Source of the DNA: a virus
Length of the DNA stretch: 64,000 nucleotides
Strand: one strand, 5' to 3'
Virus record (IMG/VR): IMGVR_UViG_3300035701_000002
The notes beneath the pieces were generated by a model. It did not search any database. It had not been told where the DNA came from and worked only from the letters and a program-made list of their open reading frames with translations. Shown piece after piece: positions 8,298 through 57,106 of this stretch (its first letter is position 1; each line of letters starts with the position of its first letter). Made by a program: the position numbers and the translations under genes.

Positions 8298-8318
8298 AAG
8301 GAGGCTAGGACGGGGGTG

Positions 8319-23905: not shown

Positions 23906-24408
23906 GGGCTACCGACTTTCTCGACCGAGTTGGCGTGGAACCTCGACACCGTCCCGTCCTTGTCGTCCTCGACGTAGAACTCTCCGAAGCTGATCACTTT
24001 CCCTGACATGGCGCGCCCGTTCCGGACGTACCGGGGCATACGGACCGAGTCCCCGACCTTGACGTCCCCGGCGGCACGGATGGACGAGTCCCAGTCGGCG
24101 ACCGGGTGTTCCGGGGACGGGGCGAATGGCAGGTCGTTCGGATGGTAGCAGCAGAAGCCGAGGAAGATGTCCGCCGCGGCGCCGTTGTGCACGCGGATCT
24201 TCTGCTTGACGGTGACAACGTAGTCCTTATATCCGCGCGGATCGTTGTCGGATCCGGAGGACTCTCCGTCCGGATCCTTCTCGATCGTCATGATGCACGG
24301 TCGGGACGAGTACTTCGATATCTTGTACGAGATGGCGTACAGCCACGACTCGTTCTCCTCGCGTGTCCATGCGAGGACCGGACCGCGGACGCTCATGGGC
24401 TGTTCCAT
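23902..24408 (-). CDS. hypothetical protein
   Basis: 168-aa ORF coupled to its neighbours by overlapping start/stop. Confidence 0.5.
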   Translation of the reverse strand: MEQPMSVRGPVLAWTREENESWLYAISYKISKYSSRPCIMTIEKDPDGESSGSDNDPRGYKDYVVTVKQKIRVHNGAAADIFLGFCCYHPNDLPFAPSPEHPVADWDSSIRAAGDVKVGDSVRMPRYVRNGRAMSGKVISFGEFYVEDDKDGTVSRFHANSVEKVGSP

Positions 24409-25412
24409 CAGTCGTCCATCTGGGCGAGGAGGAGGAGGCCCGTGGCGACGGCCGTCATCGGATCGCCGGCGGCGCGGATCTCGGAGATCTGGATGGGGAA
24501 CTTCGAACGGTGGACCTCAAAGCGCTCCTTGAACTTCTCGAGGAAGCCGCCGGCCAGGGACGTCCCGCCGGACACGATGATCGGTATGGGCTTCGGGACG
24601 AGGATCTCGCTCTTGGCTCTGGCGAAATGCTTGATCACGTTGTCGATAGTGTAATCGATCAGGGTCTGGACGAAGAGGGTGATCGCCTCCTCGTCGCGGT
24701 TCTTCGGGGACGTGATGTCAATCCCGCCCTCCTTCAGGGCGCACATCTTGGCGGCCGTGGTGTTAACGGCCCGTCCGGCGCCAGCGTCGATCCAGTCACC
24801 GCCCCGTCCAAGCGAGAACTCGAGCGCGGACATAGCGTTGTACGAAAGGCAGACGTTCGTCATGCCCGATCCGTACGAGATCCCGAGGCCGGAGAAGCTC
24901 TCCTTTCCGCATTCGGAGAAGACGACGGCGAGAGCCTCGTTCGCCGGCTCCGGAAGATAGCCGAGCTCCTTCAGAATCTTGCTGATGACCATCCCGTGGT
25001 AGGTCACATCCGAGTTCGCGACGTCCACGGCCGCGGCCGGGACCGAAAAGCAGCACTTCTCGCCGGACTTCGACGGATCCCCGAGGATCTGCTTCATCAT
25101 GAGGGCGATGACCTGCTGGGCGTCGATCTCGCCGGAGGCGATCAGGCCCCCGGACATGGGGCGGCGGGCCTCGCGATTGAAGATGTTGGCCGTCTCGAGA
25201 GCCTTATCCCCGATGACGAGGAGCTTTCCGTCGAGCTCGACATAGTCCGTCCCGGATAGCTTGAGCATGCGCTTGTGCTCGGGCGGGAGATCGAGGAACG
25301 CGTCCCGGACGCGCTTGTGCTCGATCTTCTTGTTCAGGCGCCTTGCGGCGACGAAGTTCATCGTGCCACAGTCGAGTCCGACCCCGCTGTCTCCGTTCTT
25401 TGACATGGTCAT
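24408..25412 (-). CDS. actin-like ATPase (ParM/Alp/MreB-Hsp70 superfamily)
   Basis: Phosphate-1 motif VGLDCGTMNF near the N-terminus and phosphate-2/adenosine motifs ...IVSGGTSLAGGF. Start refined to ATGACCATG (MTMSKNG) with ACGGAGACC upstream. Confidence 0.6.
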   Translation of the reverse strand: MTMSKNGDSGVGLDCGTMNFVAARRLNKKIEHKRVRDAFLDLPPEHKRMLKLSGTDYVELDGKLLVIGDKALETANIFNREARRPMSGGLIASGEIDAQQVIALMMKQILGDPSKSGEKCCFSVPAAAVDVANSDVTYHGMVISKILKELGYLPEPANEALAVVFSECGKESFSGLGISYGSGMTNVCLSYNAMSALEFSLGRGGDWIDAGAGRAVNTTAAKMCALKEGGIDITSPKNRDEEAITLFVQTLIDYTIDNVIKHFARAKSEILVPKPIPIIVSGGTSLAGGFLEKFKERFEVHRSKFPIQISEIRAAGDPMTAVATGLLLLAQMDD

Positions 25413-25498
25413 GGTCTCCGTAGAGGTATTCAAGTCCGGCTGGACCTTACCGGGCCTAAACATGACGAGGAAGACTCGGGGGCGGAAAGGACGCCCGC

Positions 25499-26769: not shown

Positions 26770-27657
26770 CTAACGATGCTCGTGATAAGAAATTGCTTTC
26801 CTCGTGACACCCAAGACATTGGCGATTTCCGACTGAGTGAAACCGTCCGTTCTGAGCAGACGAATTAGGCTTATGTCCATAGGACTAAGCTTGGCACACA
26901 CTTCCCTGTGCCTCTGACGAGCCTCATCGGTTTGAGTCGAGGCGATAGTGTTCAAAGACCTGGAAGTCTTGGACCTCCGATCCCTATCTTTCCGAACGTC
27001 TTCATCAGTCCAAGATTCCATGGAAATTCGCAATGATTCCCTCATCTTTCGGGAATGTGCCGCCCGCAACTCCGGAGGCTTCAAAAAGTTCTGAATCGAA
27101 ACGTTGTTCGAAATCTTAGCCCGGTGCTCCGGACTAAGAGCCTTACCCCTATGGGATTCGGAATTCCTGGAGCGAGCCTCTGGAGTCCCATGGATAGCCC
27201 GGTTTATCTCCGAACGTTTGGCCTTCGACTCCGGGGTCGAATATGCTGAACTTCGCTTCTCGTTGGACCTAGGGGAATGAAGATGGCTCTTATCAACGAG
27301 AGCCTGTTTGGAGCGATACGCTGGATTATCCCACGGATTTTGGATCGGGTGTGGCGTATGACTGCCGCCCTTCGCCAGGTTGAAGCCCTTCTCCGGGTTC
27401 CTAGTATCTAGAAGGAAGATCCAGGCCTCCTCGACAAGATTCGCCTCGTCAAGGGAGTCGCAGACCCCGAGGACGTGGTGAGAGAAGGCCTGAGGTCCAT
27501 ACCTCCGGATGGCGTTCGGGAAATGCCACCGACCGCCCTTCGAAGAACGAGACTGAGTGACGTGCTGAGACCAGCGACGACCTATGGACCTAGAAGTCAG
27601 ACCGATGTAACGGCGCCCGTCAGCGATGAGCGTATGGCAATAGATCGTCCAGGGCAT
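26770..27657 (-). CDS. GIY-YIG homing endonuclease with NUMOD3-like repeats and C-terminal HTH (paralog of 14573..15496)
   Basis: GIY-YIG region WTIYCHTLIADGRRYIGLT...RWSQHV...EKGFN. Repeats SPE(H/A)RAKIS and TPEARSRNS. C-terminal HTH LRTDGFTQSEIANVLGVTRKAISYHE. Confidence 0.8.
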   Translation of the reverse strand: MPWTIYCHTLIADGRRYIGLTSRSIGRRWSQHVTQSRSSKGGRWHFPNAIRRYGPQAFSHHVLGVCDSLDEANLVEEAWIFLLDTRNPEKGFNLAKGGSHTPHPIQNPWDNPAYRSKQALVDKSHLHSPRSNEKRSSAYSTPESKAKRSEINRAIHGTPEARSRNSESHRGKALSPEHRAKISNNVSIQNFLKPPELRAAHSRKMRESLRISMESWTDEDVRKDRDRRSKTSRSLNTIASTQTDEARQRHREVCAKLSPMDISLIRLLRTDGFTQSEIANVLGVTRKAISYHEHR

Positions 27658-27684: not shown

Positions 27685-29112
27685 CTAGCGTCTCTGCGTG
27701 TTCTCGAAAACGACAGTGTTTCCCCTGATCTCCCTCTCGTCCGGGATCGAGTCGCGCTCGGTCGTCATCGGGGTCGAGTCGCCCCTTCCAGGTACGATGT
27801 ACCTGGTCTGCGGGGATACGAGGACGGTGGTGTCGAGGACCGGGACCGTCGTCCGCATGTCGTTGGAGTCGAGCTTGGAGATGGAGAAGAACTGCTGGAG
27901 TTGCATCCCGCGGTTCGTCGGCATCCTGACTGCGCCGACGCCATAGCGGTCGCCGTTCAGCTTCACGAGGAAGTCCCTCTGAGAGAGGAGCGGGCTCGGG
28001 CCGGTCCATGTGTCGTACGGATGGGCGACCGTGCGGCCGCGGTTGTTCTGGCCGACGGCCCTCTCGCCGTCCTCCGGCGAGATGATGATGTCGAACGGGC
28101 CGTCATAGCCGCCGACTATCCCAGTACCGAAGCAGACAGCGCAGTCGGCGGACGGCTGCTTGTTCGTAACACTGTAGCACCCGCACCTCGGACCGACGGT
28201 CTTACGGATGAAGACCTTCACCCTCTCGCCGCCCTGGTAGAGGAGCCATTTGTTCCTACGGACCGCCTCCCGCCATATGTAGTCGAGCTGCTCAACCTGC
28301 CTGTTGTTGCAGGTCGCCGCGCGGTCGAGGGGGGTCTCGACGACCTCGCCGGTCCTCACGTCGCGGCCGACCGTGGTGGCGCGGTAGAAGATCTTCTGGT
28401 CGAGGCCGTTCGGGATCTCGTCCTGCGGGAGGTACCGGTATGTGACGAGCGTCACGTCGCCGGGCACGCCGGACGAGCCGGGGCCCGCGCTTCCGCCAGA
28501 GCCGACGGCGCCGGTCGGGAGGTACTTCCGCGGCGCGAACGGGTCGCACGTCCCGTCCAAGGGCGGGACGGACGGAAGGACGGCCGGCTTCAGGACCTGG
28601 GACGCGACGTCGAAGGTCGGGTACTTCCGGAGCTTGATCTCCCCCGTGAGGGTGTTGATGCTCTCGACGTACGCCTGGACGCCGTTTATCGTGACGACGG
28701 CATTCAGGTTCGTGCAGTTCGAAGTCCCGGTGTCCGTGACGACGATGGGGGGATTCTTTACCTTGATGATCCAGTCGCCGTTCGGATCGGTCGCGCCCGT
28801 GGCCACGTACGAGTTCGAGGCGTCCTCCTGGACGGCCACCTTCGTGAGGACCTTGTCCCTGTAGAAGTTCGTGCCGATGGGCAGAAGGTTCAGGCGGTAG
28901 AACGGCCCGTACTCGGAGTCGTAGCTCCTGTAGACGTTCACGCCGAGGATGTCGAAGTCGGTGTTCGCCTGGAGCTCGGTCGGGGAGGACCATCGCAGGT
29001 CCGTCGTCCACTTCTCGAACCCGGAGAAGCACATCAGGTTCAGAGGCGGAAGCGGGCAAGCGGGCAGCGACTGCTCGAGTATGTGAACCGGCCTGTCGGG
29101 AGGGTAGGGCAT
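27685..29112 (-). CDS. hypothetical protein, probable structural (beta-rich, Cys cluster CGCYS...CAVCFG)
   Basis: 475-aa ORF. Confidence 0.5.
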   Translation of the reverse strand: MPYPPDRPVHILEQSLPACPLPPLNLMCFSGFEKWTTDLRWSSPTELQANTDFDILGVNVYRSYDSEYGPFYRLNLLPIGTNFYRDKVLTKVAVQEDASNSYVATGATDPNGDWIIKVKNPPIVVTDTGTSNCTNLNAVVTINGVQAYVESINTLTGEIKLRKYPTFDVASQVLKPAVLPSVPPLDGTCDPFAPRKYLPTGAVGSGGSAGPGSSGVPGDVTLVTYRYLPQDEIPNGLDQKIFYRATTVGRDVRTGEVVETPLDRAATCNNRQVEQLDYIWREAVRRNKWLLYQGGERVKVFIRKTVGPRCGCYSVTNKQPSADCAVCFGTGIVGGYDGPFDIIISPEDGERAVGQNNRGRTVAHPYDTWTGPSPLLSQRDFLVKLNGDRYGVGAVRMPTNRGMQLQQFFSISKLDSNDMRTTVPVLDTTVLVSPQTRYIVPGRGDSTPMTTERDSIPDEREIRGNTVVFENTQRR

Positions 29113-31223: not shown

Positions 31224-31868
31224 ATGACGGAGACACGCCCATCGGTCCCCTCGTGGTGGCTCTTCCCCTTCAAGCCCGTCAGGGTCCGCGAGTCCATCTT
31301 CGAGTCCATCGACCCTCAGAAGTACATCCTCGAGAAGAAGTACGACGGATGGAGGGCGCTCCTGATCGCCGGTCCGGTGCCGACCCTGTGGACCAGGGAG
31401 AAGACCAGGATCGACATGCCGGACAACCTTCGCCCGCAGATCGAGTCCCTAAACCTCCCCGACGGGACGGTCCTGGACGGGGAGATCTGGACTCCGGAGA
31501 AGAGAGGGGCCTGGCGGCACAACAAGGGAGTGGACTGCAGGCTAACGCTCTGGGACGCAATCCGGTCCGGGAAGCGCGACCTTTCGGCCCTCCCGCTCGA
31601 GGCGCGGCGGACGGAGCTCGAGTCCCTCCTCGGCGCCGGGACCCGGGACGTCGGGATCGTCGAGTGGCTGCCCGCCGACGCGGCGTCGTACGCGACGGTC
31701 AGGGCGGAGGCCGAGTCATTTCGCGAGCAGGCTCAGTCCAGGTCGGGCTTCATCCACGGCGCCGTTCTGAAGAGGAGAGGGTCTCCTCGACGAGATCACG
31801 CTGTCCGGTGCGTCGAGCACGCAGACTGGCTGAAGATTGTCGTGGACGGGATGAACTCCGGCGCCTAG
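31224..31868 (+). CDS. minimal ATP-dependent DNA/RNA ligase-like nucleotidyltransferase (adenylation domain only)
   Basis: Motif I EKKYDGWRALL (KxDGxR), motif III VLDGEIW, motif V HGAVLKRR. AGGGGG lies 5 nt upstream of the ATG. Only 214 aa, with no room for an OB domain. Its 3' end overlaps the UGD ORF convergently. Confidence 0.6.
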   Translation: MTETRPSVPSWWLFPFKPVRVRESIFESIDPQKYILEKKYDGWRALLIAGPVPTLWTREKTRIDMPDNLRPQIESLNLPDGTVLDGEIWTPEKRGAWRHNKGVDCRLTLWDAIRSGKRDLSALPLEARRTELESLLGAGTRDVGIVEWLPADAASYATVRAEAESFREQAQSRSGFIHGAVLKRRGSPRRDHAVRCVEHADWLKIVVDGMNSGA

Positions 31869-33197
31869 GTCGCGGGAGCTGCGCCGGCGTCCGCGGCATA
31901 TGCTGTAGAAACGCAACCCGAAAGAGTCGAAGTCAGACTGATCCCAGACATTCCTTCCGTCGAAGACGGTGATGTCGGGGGACTGCTTCTTGATCTCCTC
32001 GATGTCCGGACTCCTGTACTGGCGCCATTCGGTGCACAGGACGAGAGCGTCCGCACCGGAGGCGGACGCGTATATGTCGTCGCAGTAGGACACCCTGTCG
32101 CCGTACAGGGAGCGGAACTGCTCCATGGCCTGCGGATCGTGGACCGTGACGGACGCGCCGTGCTTCAGCATCTCGTCCACGAGCGGGATGCTCGGTGAAT
32201 CCCGGACGTCGTCGGTCTCCGCCTTGAAGGAGAGGCCCCATACGGTGATGCGCCTCCCTCGAAGATTTCCGAGGCACTTTCGGACAAGCCTGGGGAGGAG
32301 CCTCCTCTGGAAGTCGTTCGCCTCCTTCGCGGCCCTAACGACCCTAAGGTCGTGGCCGGCGGACTCCGCCATGTGGAGGAGGGCCGAGACGTCCTTCGGG
32401 AGGCAGGATCCGCCGTAGCCCGGACCGGGATAGAGGTACTGGGGGCCGATGCGGGAGTCCGCGCCGACGCTCTCGCGGACCTTGTTAATGTCCGCCCCGA
32501 CGGACATGGCGAAGTTCGAGAGCTCGTTCATGAACGAGATTCGGGTGGCGAGGATGGAGTTCGAGGCGTACTTCACGAGCTCCGAAGACTCCGGATCCAT
32601 GACGAAGAACTTCGACGTTCCGGCGAACGGCTTATAGAGCCTGAGGAGGAGGTCCCGGGCGACCGGGCTCTCAGTGCCGATCACGACCCGGTCCGGACGC
32701 ATGAAGTCCTCGCATGCCGTCCCCTCGCGCAGGAACTCCGGGTTGGACGCGACGTGCGCCCACCCTCCCTCGACGTACGAGGCGAGTATTCTGGCGAATG
32801 TCCTTGTCGTGCCGACCGGGACGGTGCTCTTGATGACCACGACCTTCCCGGTATCCCCGGTCTTCCTCATGACCTCGCCGACCGTCCGGGCGGAAGACAT
32901 GACCTGCGACAGGTCGGCAGACCCGTCGTTGGCCTGGGGGGTACCGACGGCGACGAACACGATGTCGGCCATCTCGACGGCCATCGCGACGTCGGAAGTA
33001 AAGTCGATACGGCCCTCCTCAAGGTTGTTCTCGAGAAGGCGGTCCAGGCCGGGCTCGTAGATGGGGAGTACCCCGTCCTTCAGAGAGCGAACCTTGTCCA
33101 CGTTCGTGTCAGCGCACACGACCTCGTTGCCGAATTCGGAAAGGCCGATTCCGGTCACGAGTCCGACGTACCCAGCCCCTAGGATCGTGATTTTCAT
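31716..33197 (-). CDS. ugd: UDP-glucose 6-dehydrogenase
   Basis: N-terminal NAD-binding motif MKITILGAGYVGLVTG, catalytic region GGSCLPKD, and a UDP-binding C-terminal domain. A C-terminal tail of about 50 aa extends past the usual end. ATG at 33197 verified. Confidence 0.9.
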   Translation of the reverse strand: MKITILGAGYVGLVTGIGLSEFGNEVVCADTNVDKVRSLKDGVLPIYEPGLDRLLENNLEEGRIDFTSDVAMAVEMADIVFVAVGTPQANDGSADLSQVMSSARTVGEVMRKTGDTGKVVVIKSTVPVGTTRTFARILASYVEGGWAHVASNPEFLREGTACEDFMRPDRVVIGTESPVARDLLLRLYKPFAGTSKFFVMDPESSELVKYASNSILATRISFMNELSNFAMSVGADINKVRESVGADSRIGPQYLYPGPGYGGSCLPKDVSALLHMAESAGHDLRVVRAAKEANDFQRRLLPRLVRKCLGNLRGRRITVWGLSFKAETDDVRDSPSIPLVDEMLKHGASVTVHDPQAMEQFRSLYGDRVSYCDDIYASASGADALVLCTEWRQYRSPDIEEIKKQSPDITVFDGRNVWDQSDFDSFGLRFYSICRGRRRSSRDLGAGVHPVHDNLQPVCVLDAPDSVISSRRPSPLQNGAVDEARPGLSLLAK

Positions 33198-34744
33198 TTT
33201 GCCACCGGTTTGTCGTTCGAACGGAGGATGAAGCCCGGAAGGGCTCCCTGCCCCATGGAGTGCTCGTACCGGACCCCGGGGGACCCCGGATTGAACGGGA
33301 TTGCGAGCTTCGAGCGGACCTCGCTCTCCACCTGGTCGCGGAGGACCACTATCTGCTCTCCGCTCAGGTGGTCGGTGAAGACATAAGAGTGGTACCCGCC
33401 GGAAGGGTCACCCTTGTAGTAGTCCGCGATCTCGCAGTAGTCCACGTCGTGGGAGTGGAGACGGTCCCCGGACTTCTTGCACGTGTATGTCCAGACGTTC
33501 GGCATGTCCGGATGTGGGACCGCCTCGTCGTAGTACGGAGTTCCGGGATACGTGGTTATGGTGGTGCAGTCGAAGTCGTCCGGGGCCTGCTGTATGAGCC
33601 AGTCGCGGACATCCAGTATCGACTTCTCGGACTCCCCAGGGTGGCCGACGCTCATCAGGGCCTTGACCTTCAGCCCGTACTTCCTGGAGATCTCGACGAC
33701 CTTGTTGTTGTCCTCGAGCGTGGCCCTCTTGTTTATGTTCTCGAGGATGCGAGGGTTGGCGGCCTCGAACCCGCACAGGATCCACCTGAAGCCCGCGCGA
33801 TACATGGACCGGGCCTGCTCCTCTGTGAAGAGCTCGGACTTCACAAAGCCGCGGAGGCGGAACTCGACGCCGAGCCTGGACTGAAGGTCCGCTATGGCGT
33901 CCATGAGCTCAACGATGCTCTTGTTCACGTTGAGCTCATCGTCATACATCATGAAGCCGGTGAAGCCGTACGTCTTGTGGAGGTACTCGATCTCGCCGAC
34001 GATCGACTCGGTGGAGCGAGTCCTGATGCGGCGGAGCATGTTCGAGTTCCGGCCGCCACAGAAGCCGCACCCGAACGGACACCCGAGCTGGGCGATGAGG
34101 GACGTGGCCGGGAACCCCTCGATCGCATATTTGTAGGAGGGGACGTCGACGAGATGGCGGGCGGGGTACGGCGTAGACTCGTACTCCGCGTTTGTCATGA
34201 ACAGGCCGCCCTTCGGGACGTCCGCGTCCACGACCTTCGGAGCTCCGTCCCGCATGGCCTCGAATATGGCGCTCTCGCCGTCCCCCGAGACGAGAACGTC
34301 GAATATGGATTCGAGCTTCTCGAGCGCCTTGTGGGCGCGCCCCGCCCGCCCGGCCTTCTGCTCGAGCTTCACGGCCGAATGGACCAGGGTGACGTGCGGC
34401 CCCCCGGCTATGATCCTGATGTCCGGACGGACCGACCTCAGGCGCTCGGCGATCTTCACCGCAGCCGGGAGCTGGGGGGTCGTGGCCGTTATCGCGACGA
34501 AACGCGACTCCGTGCGGGCGGCCTGAATGGCGGCCACCTCGACGAAATTCTCTATGCCGGACAGGTCAAGGAACTCGACCGGGTGTCCGGCCTTCTCGAG
34601 GGAGGCCGCAACCTTCAGAATCCCGAGGCTCATGAATACGCGCTCGTCCAGAAGGAACAGGGAGGGCGGAGTGACGAGGAGGACTCTGTCGTTCGGCACC
34701 GCACGGGCCGGAGTAGGACGAATGAGGTTGCCTGCCGGAATCAT
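33194..34744 (-). CDS. cobalamin-binding (class B) radical SAM enzyme
   Basis: N-terminal B12-binding-like Rossmann region (RVLLVTPPSLF...). Canonical radical-SAM cluster CPFGCGFC (CxxxCxxC). The start was refined to MIPAGNL (ATGA overlap with the upstream GT stop), so the listed N-terminal 18 aa are probably not translated. Confidence 0.8.
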   Translation of the reverse strand: MIPAGNLIRPTPARAVPNDRVLLVTPPSLFLLDERVFMSLGILKVAASLEKAGHPVEFLDLSGIENFVEVAAIQAARTESRFVAITATTPQLPAAVKIAERLRSVRPDIRIIAGGPHVTLVHSAVKLEQKAGRAGRAHKALEKLESIFDVLVSGDGESAIFEAMRDGAPKVVDADVPKGGLFMTNAEYESTPYPARHLVDVPSYKYAIEGFPATSLIAQLGCPFGCGFCGGRNSNMLRRIRTRSTESIVGEIEYLHKTYGFTGFMMYDDELNVNKSIVELMDAIADLQSRLGVEFRLRGFVKSELFTEEQARSMYRAGFRWILCGFEAANPRILENINKRATLEDNNKVVEISRKYGLKVKALMSVGHPGESEKSILDVRDWLIQQAPDDFDCTTITTYPGTPYYDEAVPHPDMPNVWTYTCKKSGDRLHSHDVDYCEIADYYKGDPSGGYHSYVFTDHLSGEQIVVLRDQVESEVRSKLAIPFNPGSPGVRYEHSMGQGALPGFILRSNDKPVAK

Positions 34745-35853
34745 CTCTTGCGTTTCTCCAGAATGATCTCCTCGAGACGACCCGCAAGGACTGACCACCT
34801 GTGGGCGTTCGCGAGCTTCAGGGACTTCTCCCTGACAGAGTTCTGGAAGACCTTGTCCTGAAGGCCCTTCACAACAAACTCAGCGAACTCGGGCAGCCTG
34901 TCCCTGACGGGGGCGCGAACGGCCGGTATGTGATCCCCGTATATCTGTCCTAGCGAGTCGACCGCCGATATGACCGGTATGGCGCCGGCCGCGCAGGCCT
35001 CCATGGTGGTGACGGAGAACCCCTCCGTGAACCGGATAGTGTCGCACGGATATGCGAGGACCTCGGCCTCGGACATCTCCCTGGCCATCTGCTTTCGGCT
35101 GACGGATCCGACCCTCGCTATGTCGAGGCCGGCCATGCGCCCCATGGAGAGGTCTATATACCTGGCCCTCCTGCCGAATTCGATGAAGTCGGGGATGTCG
35201 TGATGCTCGACAGGGATGAACCTGGAGACCCAGCCGTCCATGTTGTAGAAAACGCGCAGGTGGGCGTGAGGGACGGCCCTCTTGATGGACGGCCAGGCCT
35301 GCATGAGGAGGTGGAGCCCCCTGTCCGGGGACGAAGCGTAGACGACGCGACCGGGGACCTTGAGGGCAGGGTCGTACTGGTTCGGGTCGCACCCGTTCGG
35401 GAGGACGGTCCACTTGTGGGGCGAGGGAGTGTGGGAGCGGATGTACTCCATGTGGGACTGGGACGGGCTCGTGTACACGTCCACGAAGTCGTCGAACCCC
35501 GGACGGCAGTAGCCAAAGTCGTTGAGCTGCTGGTTCACCAGCCGCAGGACGCCGGGGGCGACGGCGCGGAGAACGTCGGGCTCGTTCCACGCGCAGACGG
35601 CGTCATATCCGTAGGACTCGCCGGCGAGGTTTCCGAACTCGCGGAGCGGTACGCCGTCGAACTCCGGGGCGTTGGGGCCCTGGACGAACAGGGACACCTG
35701 GTGGCCCATCCGGGCCATCTCCCTTGCAAAGCATATGCACGAGAGCTCAGAGCCCGTCAGGCCGCGAGGGGAGTCCCAGAGGGTGTTGAAGTCGATGAGG
35801 CGGCCGGCGAGGGTGAAAGGACCGTATACGAAGGCTATTTTTAGTCCTTGCAT
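34741..35853 (-). CDS. GT4-family glycosyltransferase (paralog A)
   Basis: EX7E motif FTEGFSVTTMEACAAG. Start refined to MQGLKIAF by alignment with the paralog at 36619..37764 (MRIAFLL...RGLTGSE...MGH.V.LF). GGTG lies 6 nt upstream. Confidence 0.75.
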   Translation of the reverse strand: MQGLKIAFVYGPFTLAGRLIDFNTLWDSPRGLTGSELSCICFAREMARMGHQVSLFVQGPNAPEFDGVPLREFGNLAGESYGYDAVCAWNEPDVLRAVAPGVLRLVNQQLNDFGYCRPGFDDFVDVYTSPSQSHMEYIRSHTPSPHKWTVLPNGCDPNQYDPALKVPGRVVYASSPDRGLHLLMQAWPSIKRAVPHAHLRVFYNMDGWVSRFIPVEHHDIPDFIEFGRRARYIDLSMGRMAGLDIARVGSVSRKQMAREMSEAEVLAYPCDTIRFTEGFSVTTMEACAAGAIPVISAVDSLGQIYGDHIPAVRAPVRDRLPEFAEFVVKGLQDKVFQNSVREKSLKLANAHRWSVLAGRLEEIILEKRKR

Positions 35854-35882: not shown

Positions 35883-36668
35883 ATGGTCCAAAATCTGTGC
35901 AAGATACACGGGGTAACGGCCTTCCGAGTTCGTCATCGCCTGAAGCGCGGGTCACGCAGTCTCGTAAAAGAGTGCTTGCTCTGTGAAGCGGAAAGGGCGA
36001 AGGCACACTACCAAGGCCATAAAGCGGAGCGGAGCCAAGACAACCGGCGACGCTATCAGGAAAACAGAGACGCTGTTCGTGCAAGAACGAAGACCTATGC
36101 GGCTAGAATTCGCTATGAGGCCCTTCAAAGATACTCAGATGTTGAACCCCGATGCGCACACTGCGGAGAAGACAAGGTCGAGTCCCTGGGCCTGGACCAT
36201 ATAGTCAACAACGGATCGGACCACAGACGCAGAGAGGGACTCTTCAGTGGTCAGTCGACATATCTATGGGCGCGAAGGAACGACTATCCAACAATATTCC
36301 AAGTGCTATGCCATAACTGCAACATTCGAAAACAACTGGATAGAATCACCTCGATTTCGCCAAGTGCTCAGTATAGAGCGAGGTTGAAAACAGAAGTGCT
36401 GAGTCACTACGCGAGTCCGATAAAGTGTGCGCTTTGTAAAGAAAACGATCTGTCCGTCATGACAATCGACCACGTCAACGGTGGCGGGAATATTCATCGG
36501 AAGACTGCCTGGGGCAACAAAAGCAATTTTTATCTATGGTTCAAGAGAAACGAATTCCCATCGGGTTTCCGTGTCCTTTGCTTCAACCACAATCTAGGTA
36601 TCAGGTGTAGCGGTATGCCTACCCTGTCCAGTCCACCCTTGGTAGACCCTCGGCCCCTCTGGTTTTGA
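35883..36668 (+). CDS. tandem-HNH endonuclease (low-GC island inserted between the two GT4 paralogs)
   Basis: Two modules: CAHCGEDKVESLGLDHIVNNG...VLCHNCN and CALCKENDLSVMTIDHVNGGG...VLCFNHN. About 50% GC. The listed start is GTG at 35868; the first ATG is at 35883. Confidence 0.75.
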   Translation: MVQNLCKIHGVTAFRVRHRLKRGSRSLVKECLLCEAERAKAHYQGHKAERSQDNRRRYQENRDAVRARTKTYAARIRYEALQRYSDVEPRCAHCGEDKVESLGLDHIVNNGSDHRRREGLFSGQSTYLWARRNDYPTIFQVLCHNCNIRKQLDRITSISPSAQYRARLKTEVLSHYASPIKCALCKENDLSVMTIDHVNGGGNIHRKTAWGNKSNFYLWFKRNEFPSGFRVLCFNHNLGIRCSGMPTLSSPPLVDPRPLWF

Positions 36669-37764
36669 GACAGCGCTCGAGGTCCGACGCCAGGACCGAC
36701 CACTCGAACTTCTTGGCGTGAGAGACGCACCGCTCGGACACCTCGGCGCGGTAGGGCTCGTCTGTCAGAAGACGAACCATCTTCTGGAAGAACTCCTGGC
36801 GGTGATCCTTGAAGGGAGGAGGGACGCACTCCGCCGCGGACCCCCAGAGCTCCCCGAACGCGTCGTCCGTGCAGATCACCGGGGCGGTCCCGGACGCGCA
36901 GGCTTCCAGGACGACGACTCCGAAGGTCTCCGTGAAGTAGACCGCGTCCAGAGGGTAGGCGAGGACGCTCGAAGTCCTCATCTCCTCCTCCATCCGGTCG
37001 CGGCTCACGGACTTGTGAGCGTGGACGCCCATCCCGGACATGCGGCGGATCCCCTCCAGTATGTACCTGGAGCGGTTCCCGAGCTCGAGGTGGACCGGGG
37101 TTATGTACGCCGGCCCGGGGACGTACTCGACGGCCATGTGGTTGATGGAGTGGAAGTCGTAGAAGACGTGGAGCTCGGCGTTCGGGACAGCCCTCTTCAG
37201 GGCGGGGAACATCGAGAGCATCCAGTGAAAACCGCGGTCCAGGGACGAAGCCCAGATGATCTTCCCCGGGACCTTGACGCCGGGGCTGAACTTCACGATG
37301 TCGACGCCGTTGTACAGGACCCTCCACCTGTCGCGGGGGAACCCCGTCTCGTGGACGATCCGCCTCGCATGCGTGTGCGACAGTGGGGCGATCATGTCCA
37401 CGTGGCCCTCCCACCCGGGCGGGCTCGTGCTGAAGCCGTTGCACTGATGGTTCAGGAAGCGGAAAGTGCCGGGACTGGCGAGGAAGAGAGGGTCGGCCAT
37501 AGTCCACCCGCATGCCGCGTCCCATGACTGCTTGCAGTACACGCTCTCCCACTCCGAATAGGGAGAGCACTTCGCCATGCCGAACAAGCCGGGGGCCGAG
37601 AAATTGGAGAAAAGGGTCACGTCGTGGCCCATGGAGGCCATGGCCTCGGCGAACTTGAAGTAAGCTATCTCGGAGCCCGTCAGCCCTCTCTGGGACGTCC
37701 ATATGGAGGCGGGGTCGAACGGGACTCTCACCCCCTTCGGGTGCAGGAGGAAGGCGATCCTCAT
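36619..37764 (-). CDS. GT4-family glycosyltransferase (paralog B)
   Basis: EX7E motif FTETFGVVVLEACASG. Start refined to MRIAFLL, with an ATGA overlap to the upstream stop. Confidence 0.75.
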   Translation of the reverse strand: MRIAFLLHPKGVRVPFDPASIWTSQRGLTGSEIAYFKFAEAMASMGHDVTLFSNFSAPGLFGMAKCSPYSEWESVYCKQSWDAACGWTMADPLFLASPGTFRFLNHQCNGFSTSPPGWEGHVDMIAPLSHTHARRIVHETGFPRDRWRVLYNGVDIVKFSPGVKVPGKIIWASSLDRGFHWMLSMFPALKRAVPNAELHVFYDFHSINHMAVEYVPGPAYITPVHLELGNRSRYILEGIRRMSGMGVHAHKSVSRDRMEEEMRTSSVLAYPLDAVYFTETFGVVVLEACASGTAPVICTDDAFGELWGSAAECVPPPFKDHRQEFFQKMVRLLTDEPYRAEVSERCVSHAKKFEWSVLASDLERCLKTRGAEGLPRVDWTG

Positions 37765-39071
37765 CTTCCGGCAAGCCGTACGAGCTCGACGTGGTTCATC
37801 GGGGGTGAGGCGTGCCTTGCATGGCTTCCGGACGGGACCTCCTCGGAGGTGACCAGGACGTCGCACCTGATGCTGGAGGCCTTGGACGAGTCCAGGACGT
37901 CGATGAAGTCGAACACGCCCTCGGAGTACGGGGCGGTGCAGGGCTTGTAGAAGGAGACCCTATGGCCGAGGGCCGCGAGGGCCTTGGCCAGCGGCATGGT
38001 GTGGGACTCGGGAGACGAGTCGTAGAACGCGAAGCTGTACCCAGGCCATATCGTCGGCGCAGTGGCGGCGGCCTCCGTACAGACGATGCCCTGCCCAGGA
38101 ACGTCCTTGGCAACAGAGTGGGTCATGACATAGCAGTCCTTAACCCAGAACCCGGCCTTCCGGAAATTCGCGACGGTAGACCAGACGGTTGGGGCGATGA
38201 GGTGAGCTCTGGGCTTGCGAGCGAGCCAGGTGTGACCTTCATTGTACCAGACCCACGGGTGAGCCCACGAGACGAACTGACCTCTGTACCAAGCGCCGTG
38301 CGGGGCTACGAGGAGGGCCTTCCCGTCACCGCGGAGAAGCTTCCGGGCGGGAACCAGGAGGTCGGCCACAGGGTCGATGATGTGCTCGTAGGTGTGGGCG
38401 CAAGTAAACGCGTCGAACGAGCTGTTCGGAAGGGCGTCCGGGGCGTCCCGGAAGAAAGAGCATAGATGGCGGGCCCCGGTCCCATACTCGGCGGCCTTCG
38501 CGTTGGCGATGGACACGGAGTTGTGGCTCATGTCGACGCCAGTGACCTTGAAGCCGGCAAGACCCCAGCGGTTCGTCATGGTCCCATCGATGCATCCGAA
38601 GTCGACTAGGGAACACCCGGCGGGGAGCCTGTCCTGGATCCACCTCGTGCACTCAGAGAGCTGCCCGGTGAGGGGGAGAGGGAGCGGGTTGGCTATCTCG
38701 TTCGTGAGAGGGACGCCGTTCGGATCCATCGGCGTGTTCACGGAGTCCGAATGGACCCTGCTCTTCATCCATTCCATGGTGGAGCGAGTGATGGAGAGAG
38801 CCTTCTCGGTGGCGGCGGTGTGGCGGACCCTGTATGGGGCGTTCTCGAGGAAGCTGATCGCCGACAGAATCTCGTCGTTGATCATGAACTCGTGCCACAC
38901 GGAGATAACCATGGACTGGAGCTGCCCGTCGGACGTCCGGAGGGGGAGGGACTCGACGTCGAACAACGACGGGATACCCCAGGCCTGGTGGTGGGGAGTC
39001 TCGACAGCCACGGGGAAGTCGGAGTCGGACGGGATTCCGGTGAAGGCCGGAGAGGGAGGGTTCCAGTTCAT
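37761..39071 (-). CDS. class I SAM-dependent methyltransferase fused to a GT-B-like half domain
   Basis: Motif I LVDFGCIDG, post-I GVDMS, motif II FDAFTC, motif III LRGDGKALLV. The C-terminal ~90 aa (LAKALAALGHRVSFY...DVLVTSEE) resemble the N-terminal half of a GT-B fold. Confidence 0.65.
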   Translation of the reverse strand: MNWNPPSPAFTGIPSDSDFPVAVETPHHQAWGIPSLFDVESLPLRTSDGQLQSMVISVWHEFMINDEILSAISFLENAPYRVRHTAATEKALSITRSTMEWMKSRVHSDSVNTPMDPNGVPLTNEIANPLPLPLTGQLSECTRWIQDRLPAGCSLVDFGCIDGTMTNRWGLAGFKVTGVDMSHNSVSIANAKAAEYGTGARHLCSFFRDAPDALPNSSFDAFTCAHTYEHIIDPVADLLVPARKLLRGDGKALLVAPHGAWYRGQFVSWAHPWVWYNEGHTWLARKPRAHLIAPTVWSTVANFRKAGFWVKDCYVMTHSVAKDVPGQGIVCTEAAATAPTIWPGYSFAFYDSSPESHTMPLAKALAALGHRVSFYKPCTAPYSEGVFDFIDVLDSSKASSIRCDVLVTSEEVPSGSHARHASPPMNHVELVRLAGR

Positions 39072-40069
39072 TTCCTGAAGCTTTCTTTGAACCATCTAGC
39101 AGTCATGCGAATGCCGTCCACATATCCGACTTTCGGGTTCCAGTCCAGCATGGCCCTGGCCCTCGAGATGTCGGGGCACCTCTGCCTTGGATCGTCCTGC
39201 GGAAGAGGGCGGAACTCGACGGTCGCGGCCGACCTCGGAGAGTCGTACGGCCTGCCGGAGTCCAGGTCCAGGATGGCGGTCGCCACGTCCTCCGCCACGG
39301 AGAGGATCGACCTCTCGTCGGGATTTCCGACGTTGACGACCGGGATGGGGTGCGGTGAGAACGCCGCGCGGCGCTCGACGGTTATCTCGACCTCCATGAG
39401 CCTCAGGAGGGCCTCGACCGTGTCGGACACGAAGCAGAAGCTCCTGGTCTGACCGCCCGATCCGTAGACCGTCATGGGCTCACCGCGCATGGCCTGGAGC
39501 ATGAAGTTCGGGATGAGGCGTCCGTCCTCGAAGGCCATTCTCGGCCCGTACGTGTTGAAGAGGCGCGCGATGCGGACGTCGGTCCCGTACTGCTGGGCCC
39601 AGGACGTGGCGAGGCTCTCGCCGACCCTCTTTCCCTCGTCGTAGCAGGCGCGGATCCCGGTGGGGTTCACGTGGCCCCAGTATGTCTCCGGCTGCGGATG
39701 GACGGAAGGGTCGCCGTAGACTTCGGAGGTGGACGTGATGAGCAGGCGCGCACCAGTGTCCCTAGCGCACTCGAGGGCGTTCAGAGTGCCGATGGTCGCC
39801 GTCTTGATGGTCCTGACCGGGTTGCGCTGATAGTGGACCGGGCTTGCGGGGCAAGCCAGGTGGTAGATCCTGTCGCACTCGATGTGCCACGGATCGCACA
39901 CGTCGTGGCGCAGGAACTCGAACCTCGGGTTCCCGAGAAGGTGAAGGACGTTCGCCTTGCTCGACGTGAACAGGTTGTCCACGCACACGACGTCGTGGCC
40001 GAGCTCGACAAGGCTGTCGCAAAGGTGGGATCCGATGAACCCGGACCCTCCCGTAACTACGACCTTCAC
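39068..40069 (-). CDS. uxs: UDP-glucuronate decarboxylase (UDP-xylose synthase), SDR family
   Basis: VVVTGGSGFIGSHL ... NPRFEFLRHDV ... IYHLACPASPVHYQRNPVRTIKT...GTLN ... SEVYGDP..HPQPETYWG.VNP.G.R.CYDEGKR ... FNTYGPRM ... DDPRQRCPDIS. Near-diagnostic by eye for UXS. Confidence 0.85.
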   Translation of the reverse strand: MKVVVTGGSGFIGSHLCDSLVELGHDVVCVDNLFTSSKANVLHLLGNPRFEFLRHDVCDPWHIECDRIYHLACPASPVHYQRNPVRTIKTATIGTLNALECARDTGARLLITSTSEVYGDPSVHPQPETYWGHVNPTGIRACYDEGKRVGESLATSWAQQYGTDVRIARLFNTYGPRMAFEDGRLIPNFMLQAMRGEPMTVYGSGGQTRSFCFVSDTVEALLRLMEVEITVERRAAFSPHPIPVVNVGNPDERSILSVAEDVATAILDLDSGRPYDSPRSAATVEFRPLPQDDPRQRCPDISRARAMLDWNPKVGYVDGIRMTARWFKESFRK

Positions 40070-42453
40070 ATGGCCCCCTTATACGGTGGCATCACGTCGC
40101 GCTGGACGTCCTCCATCGTCTTCCTGAACATCGTGACCCACTCGTCCGCGAGAGAGTCCCATCCGAAGTTCTCGGTCGCGTACTTCTGAAGCTCAGACCG
40201 GTCGGAGTCGTCCGTGCGCTGCATGGCGGCAACGACCCCGTCGATGAACCGGTTCTGATAGTCCAGGGTCAGCCAGTCCCCGGGGACCATCGTCCCGCGC
40301 GGCCCGACGGTCTCGTTGAGGGCGGCTATCGGGGACGTGACCATCCGGAGCCCGGCGGCTTGGGCCTCCATGGCCGAGATGCAGCTCGTCTCCGTGAACC
40401 AAGTCGGGTAGGCCCAGACGCCGCTCTTCAGGTACTCGTCCGCGAGGACGTCCTGGGCAACGCGCCCGTGGAAGACGACGCCGGCGGTCTCGTAATCGTG
40501 GAGCATCTTCTTGAGGTTGTTGATGAGCCCCATCTGGGAGGCGTCAGCGCAGGCCTCCCACGTCTGGAATCCGTAGAAGATGTGGAGCTCGGCCCCCGGC
40601 ACCCTCTCCCTGACGCGGGGCCACACGCAGATGGCGACCTGCATCCCGCGGTCGGGGCTCGAGCTGTAGACGGCCCTCTTCGGGTCGCGCGGAGGGGACT
40701 TGACGAACCTTTCGAGATCTATGCCGTTCCGGGTCACGAGGACCTGGTCCGGATGAACGACCTGGTGGTGGTTCAGGAAATATCCGCGGTGCCACTGGCT
40801 GAGGGTCAAGAATTTGTCTATCCGGATGGCGCGAGCGTGGGTCAGCTCCCCGCCGCAGTGGACGTCGTGAACCCAGCAGAGCCTGGCCTTGGAGGACACG
40901 TTGTGGGAGTCGTCGACGGCGGACGGCCGACGGGAAGTGACGAGGACGTCGCAGTCCAGGTTGCCGTACTTACCGTGGTGGATGTATTCGACGCCCGAGA
41001 AGCTGCCCTCGATGCCAGGGCACTCGCCGAAGACCCGCACTCGGTGGCCCCTGCCGGCGAGCCTCTTGGACATCTCGATGACGGCGGTCTCGGACCCCCC
41101 GATCCCCTTCTTGGAGGCAGTCTCCGGATTCCAGGGCTCCACGGCGTTCCCGACATAGAAAACGATGTCCAGGACGTCCCCATGACCGTCGGGGCGCGAC
41201 CCGGACGGGGCCTGGAACCTGTTCTTCGAAACGACGGAGTCGACGTGCGCCCTGACGTCCGGAGACAGGTCCCCTGTGTCGACAAGGGCCGTGAGGGCCG
41301 ACGACAGCTTGTCCTTGGCCAGGTGCTTCTCGAACACCTTCTTGTTCACGAGGAGGTGCGGATCGTCGGGCTTCGCCCTCAGCCCTGTGTTGACGCTCTC
41401 TAGCGCCTCGGCGACGCGGCCCGTGTTGCTGAGGGCGACGTTGAGGAACTTGTGTACCTCGAGGTTCCTGTCGAACGGGTTGATGAAGAGGGATGTGTTC
41501 GTAGGGGGGAGCGAAAGGCCAAGGCGCGCGAAGTGGGCGCACCGCTCCCAGTTCCTGTACGTGTCCTTGCCCCTCTGGGCCAGAAAGTAGAAGCACTTGG
41601 CGAGGGTGAAGTAAGCCTCACCCCACTTCTCATGGATGATGGTGGCCCTGCTGGCCCACGGGATGGCGTCGTCGTAGGCCCCGCGGCCGATGTGATGGTC
41701 GGCGATCTTCAGGCAGGCGAGATACTTCTCATCGTCCCATCCGGAGCGGTCGACGTACTTGCTCAGGAACTTCACGGCATTGTCGAAGTCACCGTTGTTC
41801 CCGTACTCGAGACCGAGGTAGTACAGGTGCCGGGCGTCGGAGTCACCCTCATCCTCGTACTGCTCTTTGAGGATCCGGAGGTTCCGGCCGGGTTCGACCT
41901 TCTTGCGGGACAGGTCGCGACGGTGGACGATCTTGACCCTCTCGGTCCTCTGCCTGAGGTCTCCTGCGAGCGGGACGAGGACCTCATGGACCCTCCCGAC
42001 CCACCTGAAGCCGGCCTTCGGGGAGACGAGCCTCTCGCGGTCGTGGAGGAGGGTGACGTTCCCATGCTCGTCATGGGCATACTCGTACGGCATCATGACC
42101 ATGGAAGGTCCGCCGTTCCGGGCGCGATCGTACTCCTCCACGAGGGACGCCAAGTGCTCCGCACCGGCAACCTCGTCGTCCCCGTCGATCCACATGGTCC
42201 ATGGCTGCGTGGCGAGGCTGAAGCTCTTCTGCCGTGCGTCCGCGAACGACCTCATCAGGCCGCTAGGATGATTGCACCCCGTGTAGACCTCGAACTTGTC
42301 GGCGAAGCGGCGAGCGACGTCCTGAGAGGAGTCGGTTGATCCAGTGTCGACGACGACGATCTCGGCAACGTAGGGCCGGACGGAGCTCAGGCATTTTTCG
42401 AGCTGGGCGATCTCGTCGCGGACGATGAGGCAGACGGATATGGGCGCTGTCAC
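40066..42453 (-). CDS. multidomain glycosyltransferase: N-terminal GT2 - TPR-like repeats - C-terminal GT4
   Basis: GT2 region: SVCLIVRDE...VVDTGSTD...WIDGDD. TPR-like helical repeats lie in the middle. GT4 region: EX7E FTETSCISAMEAQAAG. ATGA overlap with uxs. Confidence 0.8.
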   Translation of the reverse strand: MTAPISVCLIVRDEIAQLEKCLSSVRPYVAEIVVVDTGSTDSSQDVARRFADKFEVYTGCNHPSGLMRSFADARQKSFSLATQPWTMWIDGDDEVAGAEHLASLVEEYDRARNGGPSMVMMPYEYAHDEHGNVTLLHDRERLVSPKAGFRWVGRVHEVLVPLAGDLRQRTERVKIVHRRDLSRKKVEPGRNLRILKEQYEDEGDSDARHLYYLGLEYGNNGDFDNAVKFLSKYVDRSGWDDEKYLACLKIADHHIGRGAYDDAIPWASRATIIHEKWGEAYFTLAKCFYFLAQRGKDTYRNWERCAHFARLGLSLPPTNTSLFINPFDRNLEVHKFLNVALSNTGRVAEALESVNTGLRAKPDDPHLLVNKKVFEKHLAKDKLSSALTALVDTGDLSPDVRAHVDSVVSKNRFQAPSGSRPDGHGDVLDIVFYVGNAVEPWNPETASKKGIGGSETAVIEMSKRLAGRGHRVRVFGECPGIEGSFSGVEYIHHGKYGNLDCDVLVTSRRPSAVDDSHNVSSKARLCWVHDVHCGGELTHARAIRIDKFLTLSQWHRGYFLNHHQVVHPDQVLVTRNGIDLERFVKSPPRDPKRAVYSSSPDRGMQVAICVWPRVRERVPGAELHIFYGFQTWEACADASQMGLINNLKKMLHDYETAGVVFHGRVAQDVLADEYLKSGVWAYPTWFTETSCISAMEAQAAGLRMVTSPIAALNETVGPRGTMVPGDWLTLDYQNRFIDGVVAAMQRTDDSDRSELQKYATENFGWDSLADEWVTMFRKTMEDVQRDVMPPYKGAM

Positions 42454-42489: not shown

Positions 42490-43404
42490 TCAGGCCATCA
42501 GCAGGTAGGAGGCATAAGCGTCGACGGACTGACCGCGGAAGCTCGCGTTGGCGTTCGGAGCGGCGGTGAACGCCGCCGAGATCGCCGCATGGGCGGTCTC
42601 CATCGCCGCCTTCGCGCCGGCCGCGCCGGTCCAGTACGACTGAGCGCCGAGGCCCTGACCGGTCTCCGATCCGCACCAGAGGCCGTAGTTCCTGCCCGAC
42701 TGGCTCGCATAGTCGAACCACTTCTGGAAGGTGGCGATCTGCTGGGCCGAGTTGTTGTAGTAGCATCCGACGGACACGAAGTCCGCGCAGTCCATCAGGT
42801 TCAGGCCTTCGAGCTGGGTCGGGCCTCCGCCGTAGGAGAAGCTCAGGGCGGCGGACGCGGGGTCGGCGAGCCACTGGCTGGTGAAGCAGCCGACGGGCAC
42901 GTTCAGGACCGCCCTGGCGGCCTTCATGAGGTCGCACAGGCCCTGGGGATCGGCGGCCGTATAGCCGGGGACGGTCCAGTACTCGACGTCGAGCATGAGG
43001 CCGTCGAAGGCCGCAGCGTCGGTCGTGGTGCTGGCGGCGTCCGCGAGGGCGTTGTACTGGGCGACGTGGCGGACGATGTTGTTCATCACCCACTGCTGGT
43101 TCTGGCCCCAGTCCGTGTTCCCGGCCAGGGCCATCACGCGAATCCCGGATGCGTGCGCGTAGTGGACGAACTTCGTGACCGCCTGGTAGTTGGCGGTCGA
43201 CCAGTTGCCGCCCCCGAGGCGCCCCCAGACGTCGAGGAACACGACGTTGACGCCGTTCGAGGAGCAGAAGCTGAGGAGGCTCTGGACCTTCGCGTCGGTC
43301 GCGAGCGGATCTCCGGCCGATCCGGCGGCTCCGCACCACACGAACATGGAGCGGTCGAGGTTGCTGTTCGGGGGGACAGGGATTGCTACGGCTGAAACGG
43401 TCAT
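42490..43404 (-). CDS. TIM-barrel glycoside hydrolase-like protein (GH18/GH114-like motif DGLMLDVEYW)
   Basis: 304-aa ORF with alternating beta-alpha pattern and a D-x-x-x-x-D-x-E motif. It is the first gene of the sugar operon. Confidence 0.45.
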   Translation of the reverse strand: MTVSAVAIPVPPNSNLDRSMFVWCGAAGSAGDPLATDAKVQSLLSFCSSNGVNVVFLDVWGRLGGGNWSTANYQAVTKFVHYAHASGIRVMALAGNTDWGQNQQWVMNNIVRHVAQYNALADAASTTTDAAAFDGLMLDVEYWTVPGYTAADPQGLCDLMKAARAVLNVPVGCFTSQWLADPASAALSFSYGGGPTQLEGLNLMDCADFVSVGCYYNNSAQQIATFQKWFDYASQSGRNYGLWCGSETGQGLGAQSYWTGAAGAKAAMETAHAAISAAFTAAPNANASFRGQSVDAYASYLLMA

Positions 43405-57100: not shown

Positions 57101-57106
57101 TCCCAT
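48137..57106 (-). CDS. giant collagen-like fibre protein (2989 aa) with internal and C-terminal BclA/C1q-like globular domains
   Basis: ATG at 57106 verified. The protein is collagenous from residue ~15, with about 2500 residues of G-X-Y enriched in Thr/Gln/Pro/Ser/Ala. An internal globular domain begins [28 protein letters not shown]. The C-terminal globular domain runs [14 protein letters not shown]...VTVEFV. Confidence 0.85.
48620..57060. repeat. ~8.4 kb of collagen G-X-Y triplet-coding repeats (approximate bounds; interrupted once by a globular-domain coding segment)
   Basis: Direct inspection shows ggNccNgtN-type periodicity throughout. Long plus-strand and other-frame ORFs here are shadows. 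Confidence 0.75.

Follow-up and report, generated by a model that had tools for sequence, protein, structure and literature searches.

A radical SAM protein of an uncharacterized family in the sugar operon of a divergent large phage

The window analyzed here, a 64,000-nucleotide stretch of viral DNA (IMG/VR virus record IMGVR_UViG_3300035701_000002), carries within a sugar operon a gene for a 516-residue radical S-adenosylmethionine (SAM) protein, hereafter rSAM. The protein joins a B12-binding-type Rossmann domain to a radical SAM core. Judged by its sequence, it appears to stand outside every curated family, as a member of an uncharacterized family within a known superfamily. This family is under strong constraint, is rare in cultured phages and recurs in uncultivated ones, and its link to glycan biosynthesis is robust. 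We propose that rSAM is a functional enzyme of class B architecture that would tailor a sugar in glycan pathways. Cobalamin-dependent methyl transfer to that sugar is the chemistry that we favor, with a probability of about 0.4.

Domain architecture and family of rSAM

The rSAM open reading frame (ORF) runs on the minus strand from an ATG at 34744 to a TGA stop at 33196-33194. Its start is joined by an ATGA (34744-34741) to the stop of an upstream GT4-like glycosyltransferase gene, and its stop by a second ATGA (33197-33194) to the ATG of ugd. These coordinates confirm the placement between a GT4 gene and ugd, with ATGA overlaps at both ends, that a first-pass annotation of the window had reported. 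A GTG located 54 nt upstream allows a longer ORF (to 34798); the gene calls on identical public contigs have the 516-residue form. A protein identical to the product (P0001) is encoded on 19 contigs, of which the cluster table lists 8. The parts of the protein are the following.

34175..34687, minus strand: N-terminal Rossmann (B12-binding-type) domain, residues ~20-190 (PF02310, AlphaFold model, shared motifs)
34058..34081, minus strand: CPFGCGFC [4Fe-4S]/SAM motif, read in the translation; cysteines invariant in homologues
33515..34159, minus strand: radical SAM partial TIM-barrel core, residues ~196-410
33197..33514, minus strand: family-specific C-terminal domain, residues ~411-516; conserved in the core family, no Pfam or PDB sequence match

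Both Pfam models score above their cut-offs, Radical_SAM with 87.9 bits against 29.5 (residues 219-383) and B12-binding with 51.4 bits against 32.1 (residues 39-125). The CPFGCGFC motif spans residues 222-229 and has the spacing C222-x3-C226-x2-C229. The first-pass annotation had recognized the B12-type N-terminus and this motif and had named a class B radical SAM protein, and the Pfam matches, the motif and the fold matches bear out the two-domain architecture. In the AlphaFold (AF2) model of rSAM (predicted local distance difference test, pLDDT, 87.1; predicted template modeling score, pTM, 0.88), the N-terminal domain has a five-strand beta/alpha pattern. The best fold matches of the model are all two-domain proteins (TsrM, AprD4, MgmA, TokK and CysS), with Foldseek E-values of 2e-21 for TsrM, 1e-19 for AprD4, 9e-19 for MgmA and 4e-17 for TokK, and the fold as modeled is the two-domain 'Rossmann + radical SAM' type. 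The C-terminal domain probably serves substrate recognition.

All of the 22 NCBIfam matches to rSAM lie far below cut-off. In bits against the cut-off, they include BchE (TIGR02026; 99 against 481), PhpK (94 against 600), HpnJ (94 against 578), HpnR (82 against 650), RiPP C-MT (71 against 282), AprD4 (NF033070; 66 against 500, with only the core aligned), MgmA (60 against 360), KedN5 (26 against 700) and TsrM (22 against 500). No model for GenK, GenD1, Fom3 or MoeK5 was among the NCBIfam matches. With no equivalog model near its cut-off, the earlier designation of rSAM as GenK- or Fom3-type was overstated, and this type is one candidate among several. BchE, the Mg-protoporphyrin cyclase whose name the Joint Genome Institute (JGI) gives to many homologues, was rejected on its score and in view of a setting with no photosynthesis context. 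An anaerobic sulfatase maturase (SPASM/twitch), the opposing assignment named in the first-pass annotation, was also rejected: only the three cluster cysteines are conserved, and therefore there is no auxiliary cluster.

The family is large and nearly nameless. In a large protein search, more than 120 clusters were 66-89% identical to rSAM, and the only names on them were the COG-derived 'BchE' and 'YgiQ'. At the 50%-cluster level, 332 representatives matched at E <= 1e-30. Among the species-representative genomes, relatives with 56-62% identity were found in metagenome-assembled genomes (MAGs) of Saccharibacteria, Yanofskybacteria, Paceibacterota, Nitrospinae and Nitrospirae. At least 122 viral contigs in IMG/VR encode relatives of rSAM; 80 IMG/VR loci, each at least 51% identical and on contigs of 5 to 393 kb, were kept. 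The rSAM of the window looks like an ordinary member of this family. At 65% identity or more it falls into one cluster with 12 IMG/VR sequences, and the sequences from candidate phyla radiation (CPR) bacteria form a separate cluster that also holds IMG/VR contigs.

The sole match among 50,697 deposited phage genomes was in Streptomyces phage SF3, distant and non-syntenic. Its gp36 (28% identity over 35% of the query) has thymidylate kinase and NUDIX neighbors and was set aside as a different family in a different context. No plasmid match exceeded 29% identity, PHROGs gave just one weak match, to a family of unknown function, and the BFVD viral structures gave solely distant B12-like radical SAM proteins (11-16% identity). 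Radical SAM proteins as such are common among viral proteins. The first-pass annotation had considered the enzyme to be unusual cargo for a virus; this is true of the deposited phages but not of the IMG/VR contigs, which carry many close relatives. A characterized family member or a paper on the family was not found in the literature, and a radical SAM enzyme of thymidine hypermodification (PMC8989533) was unrelated to rSAM and SPL-like.

C222, C226 and C229 are the sole invariant cysteines, both in 24 and in 44 homologues, and P26, S28, L31, G41, D60, G114, G115 and H117 keep a conservation of at least 94% in relatives as distant as 31% identity. The C-terminal domain is strongly conserved in the core family, for example at YYKGDP..GGY and YEHSMGQ; among distant relatives, conservation is lowest there. 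An intein-sized insertion of ~140-430 residues brings at least 20 homologue clusters to a length of 650-930 residues. Most of the insertions are at the Fe-S cysteines; the sites are C222, C229 or its vicinity, and the neighborhood of residue 267 (DDELN motif), and the insertions look like several independent events in the catalytic site. Three insertion-bearing clusters (P0037, P0049 and P0055) have recorded Pfam domains of the intein or LAGLIDADG homing-endonuclease type. That rSAM is under constraint follows from the clusters at 66-89% identity, the MAG relatives at 56-62% and the insertions at catalytic cysteines.

Several further relatives were observed. Insertion-bearing homologues also include P0063 and P0121-P0146. 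P0224 (2,096 aa) and P0243 (2,331 aa) each contain four tandem B12-domain radical SAM modules with 22-26% identity to the query. The 'bacterial' homologue nearest the clade of the window, on two loci binned as Polyangiaceae (L005/L006), is 79% identical to IMG/VR sequences and lies near dCMP deaminase, thioredoxin and transglycosylase genes. The 160-kb phage contig that matches the window also has a transglycosylase just outside the window, and the L005/L006 contig may be a mis-binned phage.

The sugar operon and its counterparts across the family

rSAM is the seventh of eight genes in the operon, most neighbors of which are joined through 4-nt overlaps. From the first gene onward, the features are as follows.

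40066..42453, minus strand: GT2 + GT-B fusion glycosyltransferase, 795 aa, first gene of the operon (PHROG glycosyltransferases E 3e-33 and 2e-16; Pfam Glycos_transf_2, Glyco_trans_1_4)
39068..40069, minus strand: UDP-glucuronate decarboxylase (UDP-xylose synthase, UXS) (phmmer E 1.7e-104, full length, to human UXS1, 4GLL and 2B69; Pfam domains of the short-chain dehydrogenase/reductase, SDR, type)
37761..39071, minus strand: class I SAM-dependent methyltransferase-domain protein, 436-444 aa (Pfam Methyltransf_11/12/23/25, residues ~154-281; gene call)
36619..37764, minus strand: second GT4-like glycosyltransferase, 381 aa (Pfam Glyco_trans_1_4, Glycos_transf_1)
35883..36668, plus strand: HNH homing endonuclease, inserted between the two GT4 genes (PHROG HNH endonuclease E 7e-13; gene call)
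34741..35853, minus strand: GT4-like (GT-B) glycosyltransferase, 370 aa, stop overlapping the rSAM start (weak GT-B Pfam matches)
33194..34744, minus strand: rSAM, 516 aa (Pfam Radical_SAM + B12-binding)
31716..33197, minus strand: ugd, UDP-glucose 6-dehydrogenase, start overlapping the rSAM stop (three UDPG_MGDP_dh Pfam domains)

All three UDPG_MGDP_dh domains are found in Ugd (E 1e-58 to 2e-33), which also scores above cut-off with the NCBIfam nucleotide-sugar dehydrogenase model (436 bits, cut-off 190). Because the operon encodes both Ugd and UXS, UDP-GlcA and UDP-Xyl can be made. The GT4 label of the gene next to rSAM comes from weak yet consistent GT-B Pfam matches (26-30 bits), and a 52% identical homologue of its product is encoded in a syntenic viral contig (L025). 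The ugd ORF has a C-terminal tail of ~70 aa past the Pfam domains (31716-31868 of the window), which overlaps a convergent gene for a 214-aa DNA-ligase-like protein (31224-31868) by ~150 nt; the true stop of ugd, or the reality of its tail, is uncertain.

Mobile endonuclease genes in the operon, and nothing else, speak for the reading that rSAM has no role in the phage and is decaying or a passenger. We regard this as highly improbable, since the frame is intact, all motifs are present, both neighbors are joined by 4-nt overlaps, the identical protein occurs on 19 contigs and the family keeps 66-89% identity.

The glycan context of the window is shared by its relatives. ORFs were called in the fetched loci. 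Of the 97 loci with rSAM, 47 have an SDR within 10 kb of it, 24 a DegT aminotransferase and 20 ugd. In a separate Pfam scan of the 150 genes that directly flank rSAM in 86 non-redundant loci, the most frequent families were glycosyl transferases group 1 (17 genes), GT2 (16), Glyco_trans_1_2 (13), SDR epimerase/dehydratase (10), Methyltransf_24 (8), FkbM (4) and Ugd (4). Other neighbors are GT10/GT11-like, PLOD-type and RXYLT1-like transferases and, in bacteria, the membrane proteins Wzy_C and PMT_2. The close viral relatives are syntenic, and in the closest ones rSAM is also translationally coupled to ugd. In one Saccharibacteria locus (L023), a second radical SAM paralogue (8194-9726, minus strand; ~25% identical) lies in the same glycan cluster, 5.5 kb from the family member.

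Possible cobalamin use and proposed chemistry of rSAM

In the pathway that we propose, Ugd and UXS would provide UDP-glucuronate and UDP-xylose, the three glycosyltransferase proteins (one of them the GT2/GT-B fusion) would assemble a glycan, and the SAM methyltransferase would decorate it. The [4Fe-4S] cluster on C222/C226/C229 would cleave SAM reductively, and the resulting 5'-deoxyadenosyl radical would take a hydrogen from an unactivated sugar carbon, the sugar being that of a nucleotide sugar or part of the nascent glycan. The N-terminal domain would hold methylcobalamin, which would then quench the sugar radical to give a C-methyl sugar; this is, narrowly, the most likely outcome.

Several lines of evidence point to cobalamin and methyl transfer. 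The NCBIfam profiles of BchE, PhpK, ApyD, HpnR and BzaD, presumed to be cobalamin enzymes, start aligning at residue ~20-40 and continue through the core, whereas the alignment of the AprD4 profile begins only at residue 190. The AGGPHV and GDGE (GxGE) motifs of the N-terminal domain are common to cobalamin-bound TokK and to 4Q37. Conservation at the strand ends (PPS, D60 and GGPH) is as would be expected for a cofactor crevice. In addition, C-methyl transfer is the reaction of most class B enzymes characterized so far, among them the sugar-acting GenK, GenD1, Fms7 and MoeK5 (PMC12931638).

Other observations weigh against this reading. AprD4 and ArsL have a related domain that does not bind cobalamin (PMC12931638). 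Between the cobalamin and the cluster lies the residue at Cys3+2, in most cases a hydrophobic one, which the non-methylating OxsB lacks (review PMC12931638). In the rSAM family, an alignment that is anchored on the cluster motif and reliable puts Gly231 at this position and Arg232 next to it, both invariant; TokK has Trp215 and TsrM Glu236 there, and the methylase MgmA has a Val. The lower-axial position falls, by two weak alignments only, on the invariant T88-T89-P90-Q91, which is small and polar, whereas in radical methylases the residue, where the review names it, is Trp or Leu (PMC12931638), as is Trp76 of TokK. Among the Pfam-annotated genes over almost the whole window there is no cobalamin-related gene, and the window contains no cobalamin riboswitch. 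Neither another Rfam family nor a tRNA was found in it. Many carriers of the family are CPR bacteria, and these, to our knowledge, do not make cobalamin. Finally, the SDRs that adjoin rSAM vary (UXS, GDP-mannose dehydratase and others), and therefore no single nucleotide-sugar pathway co-varies with rSAM.

Comparison with solved proteins bears on the same question. AprD4 is the top match of rSAM among PDB sequences, at E 7.6e-15 in the single-sequence search and 9e-21 in the profile search; MgmA (3.5e-14), TsrM (5e-8) and TokK come next. A profile of the N-terminal domain alone matched only 4Q37 among PDB sequences, at E 0.04. Cobalamin-bound TsrM, MgmA and TokK score almost as well, so that B12 use is not settled by ranking, and the structural ranking likewise does not separate cobalamin-binding from non-binding enzymes. 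A possible but doubtful alternative is that rSAM is an AprD4-like, cobalamin-independent radical 1,2-diol dehydratase. In such an enzyme a ring hydrogen would be abstracted and the neighboring hydroxyl would leave, giving a deoxy-keto sugar that an SDR then reduces or DegT transaminates, and the Rossmann domain would be structural or substrate-binding. However, the AprD4 equivalog is matched over its core only and far below its cut-off, and AprD4 has a CX3CX3C cluster (GCPYPCRFYC) where rSAM has CX3CX2C (GCPFGCGFC). The N-terminal domain is highly conserved, with the GGPH and GxGE of cobalamin-bound TokK, and it is cobalamin-bound TsrM that comes first in Foldseek. Moreover, the only SDR of the operon is a clear UXS, which leaves no candidate ketoreductase.

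The residues near the putative cofactor bear on a further possibility, that of a cobalamin-dependent but non-methylating sugar rearrangement. This could be a ring contraction like those of HpnJ and OxsB, or a decarboxylation or epimerization of the glucuronate supplied by Ugd, with cobalamin acting as a redox partner. HpnJ is among the three best NCBIfam matches, the stacked bulky residue is absent as in OxsB, the candidate lower-axial region is small and polar like that of non-methylating enzymes, and rSAM is coupled translationally to ugd in the window and in its closest relatives. We nevertheless consider such a rearrangement unlikely compared with cobalamin-dependent methyl transfer, for which we infer a sugar substrate. 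Cobalamin dependence, C-methylation and rarity in viruses, as claimed in the first-pass annotation, should all be worded more softly.

The phage setting and comparison with known systems

The viral origin of the window is well supported. It matches a 160-kb metagenome contig of the European Nucleotide Archive (ENA), syntenic contigs are found in IMG/VR, and homologues of its structural module occur only in huge phages, namely uncultured LR745208, Tunturiibacter phage Tunturi_5 and Bacillus phage G. The window is almost wholly composed of ORFans, mostly on one strand, and no gene in it could be named as portal, terminase or capsid. The operon is placed among virion genes of a divergent large phage. 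A collagen-like tail-fiber gene (1,226 aa; PHROG E 2e-139) lies upstream of it, and ORFans in a head-module-like order lie downstream. Two ORFans, 42490-43404 and 43454-44422 (minus strand), separate the fiber gene from the operon. The product of 43454-44422 is rich in Ala, Val, Thr and Ser (11% Thr, 11% Ser), has one weak PHROG match of unknown function and could be a target of glycosylation.

Hydrophobic segments of transmembrane grade are absent from all operon proteins, and no flippase (Wzx), polymerase (Wzy) or priming transferase is annotated in the operon region, which points to an acceptor in the cytoplasm. From this soluble operon with no export functions, and from its position in the virion module, we infer that the glycan most likely ends on virion proteins such as fibers. 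A host envelope precursor may instead be the modified target.

The proximity of the fiber gene also bears on whether the substrate of rSAM is a sugar. The enzyme could act on a protein or lipid of the same cluster, for example on a residue of the collagen-like fiber or of a virion protein that is later glycosylated. Some related viral loci have PLOD-type collagen glycosyltransferase domains, and the solved relatives MgmA and TsrM work on a protein residue and an amino acid. There is also no single conserved nucleotide-sugar partner: the family's loci yielded no constant partner from which the substrate could be named, and ugd and DegT are each present in a minority of them. On the other hand, the family also occurs in glycan clusters of CPR and other bacteria (Wzy_C, PMT_2, DegT and many glycosyltransferases) without phage virion genes, and 56-62% identity over such unlike contexts points to a small, universal substrate. 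A non-sugar substrate is thus rather improbable, and modification of a sugar is the reading that we retain.

Some observations concern the window as a whole. It runs 722 nt (1-722) past the end of the matching ENA contig and therefore comes from a longer or differently permuted assembly. Four homing endonucleases are encoded in the 64 kb: the HNH gene of the operon (35883-36668, plus strand), two GIY-YIG genes (26770-27657 and 14573-15496, both minus strand) and a second HNH gene (22458-23072, minus strand). Past the fiber gene lies a giant ORF (48137-57106, minus strand) of 2,725 aa by the gene call and 2,989 aa as the longest ORF. It has no Pfam match, and part of it, especially 50000-57000, has 70-74% GC against ~64% elsewhere.

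The 351-aa product of the gene at 24408-25463 (minus strand) is covered from end to end by Pfam Volactin (E 2.9e-69), a family of archaeal actin-like proteins, and has no PHROG match and no meaningful PDB sequence match. Its homologues are in the huge uncultured phages LR745208 (55% identity) and LR756511 (29%), and in LR745208 the gene is near a homologue of the window gene 27685-29112. It occupies the place expected of a major capsid gene. Either huge phages have an actin-like protein in the head module, or Pfam Volactin is broader than its name. A haloarchaeal virus, suggested by this match and by a GC content of 65%, was ruled out because the proteins are not acidic (pI ~6).

Class B-type radical SAM enzymes are among the largest enzyme groups without assigned chemistry. 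The rSAM family, with its unusual phage and CPR distribution and its unusual insertions at catalytic cysteines, together with its conservation and its place in glycan clusters, is a well-defined target for enzyme discovery. With the biochemistry of one member assigned, hundreds of glycan clusters in viruses and bacteria would gain an annotation, and a new sugar of phage particles could come to light. If the enzyme is truly cobalamin-dependent, the chemistry of the phage virion would be tied to the B12 supply of the host. We suggest, quite tentatively, that the family may perform a sugar modification new to glycobiology (a uronic acid or pentose being C-methylated, deoxygenated or rearranged by radical chemistry), spread by phages for virion decoration and also shaping the surface glycans of CPR bacteria. 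The over-specific label of a cobalamin-dependent GenK/Fom3-type methylase is here corrected to one that the data support.

The known enzymes nearest to rSAM are distant from it. AprD4 of apramycin biosynthesis (PDB 6FD2) is only 20-21% identical, has no counterpart of the conserved C-terminal domain, and its profile misses the N-terminal domain. TsrM (6WTE), MgmA/QCMT (9CCB), TokK (7KDX) and CysS (9N1B) have 14-22% identity and different C-terminal domains, and their substrates (tryptophan, a protein glutamine, a carbapenem and a carrier-bound polyketide, respectively) are not sugars. As for the setting, the virion glycosylation of mycobacteriophages and the glycan operons of chloroviruses and giant viruses combine soluble glycosyltransferases and sugar-nucleotide enzymes beside structural genes, as in the window. 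We know of no radical SAM enzyme in those viral systems, and for the phage of the window the virion target is a proposed one.

Radical chemistry on sugars is found in other class B enzymes. HpnJ, which contracts the glucosamine ring in hopanoids, and OxsB, which carries out the ring contraction of oxetanocin, act on sugar rings and do not methylate. GenK, GenD1 and MoeK5 resemble rSAM in their class B architecture and have known sugar substrates (PMC12931638), whereas Fom3 resembles it in architecture only. The searches gave no sequence-level link of these four enzymes to rSAM, and they belong to actinomycete antibiotic clusters, in contrast to the phage and CPR glycan clusters of the rSAM family. 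MoeK5 C-methylates a uronic-acid-derived unit, and this parallels the coupling of rSAM to ugd.

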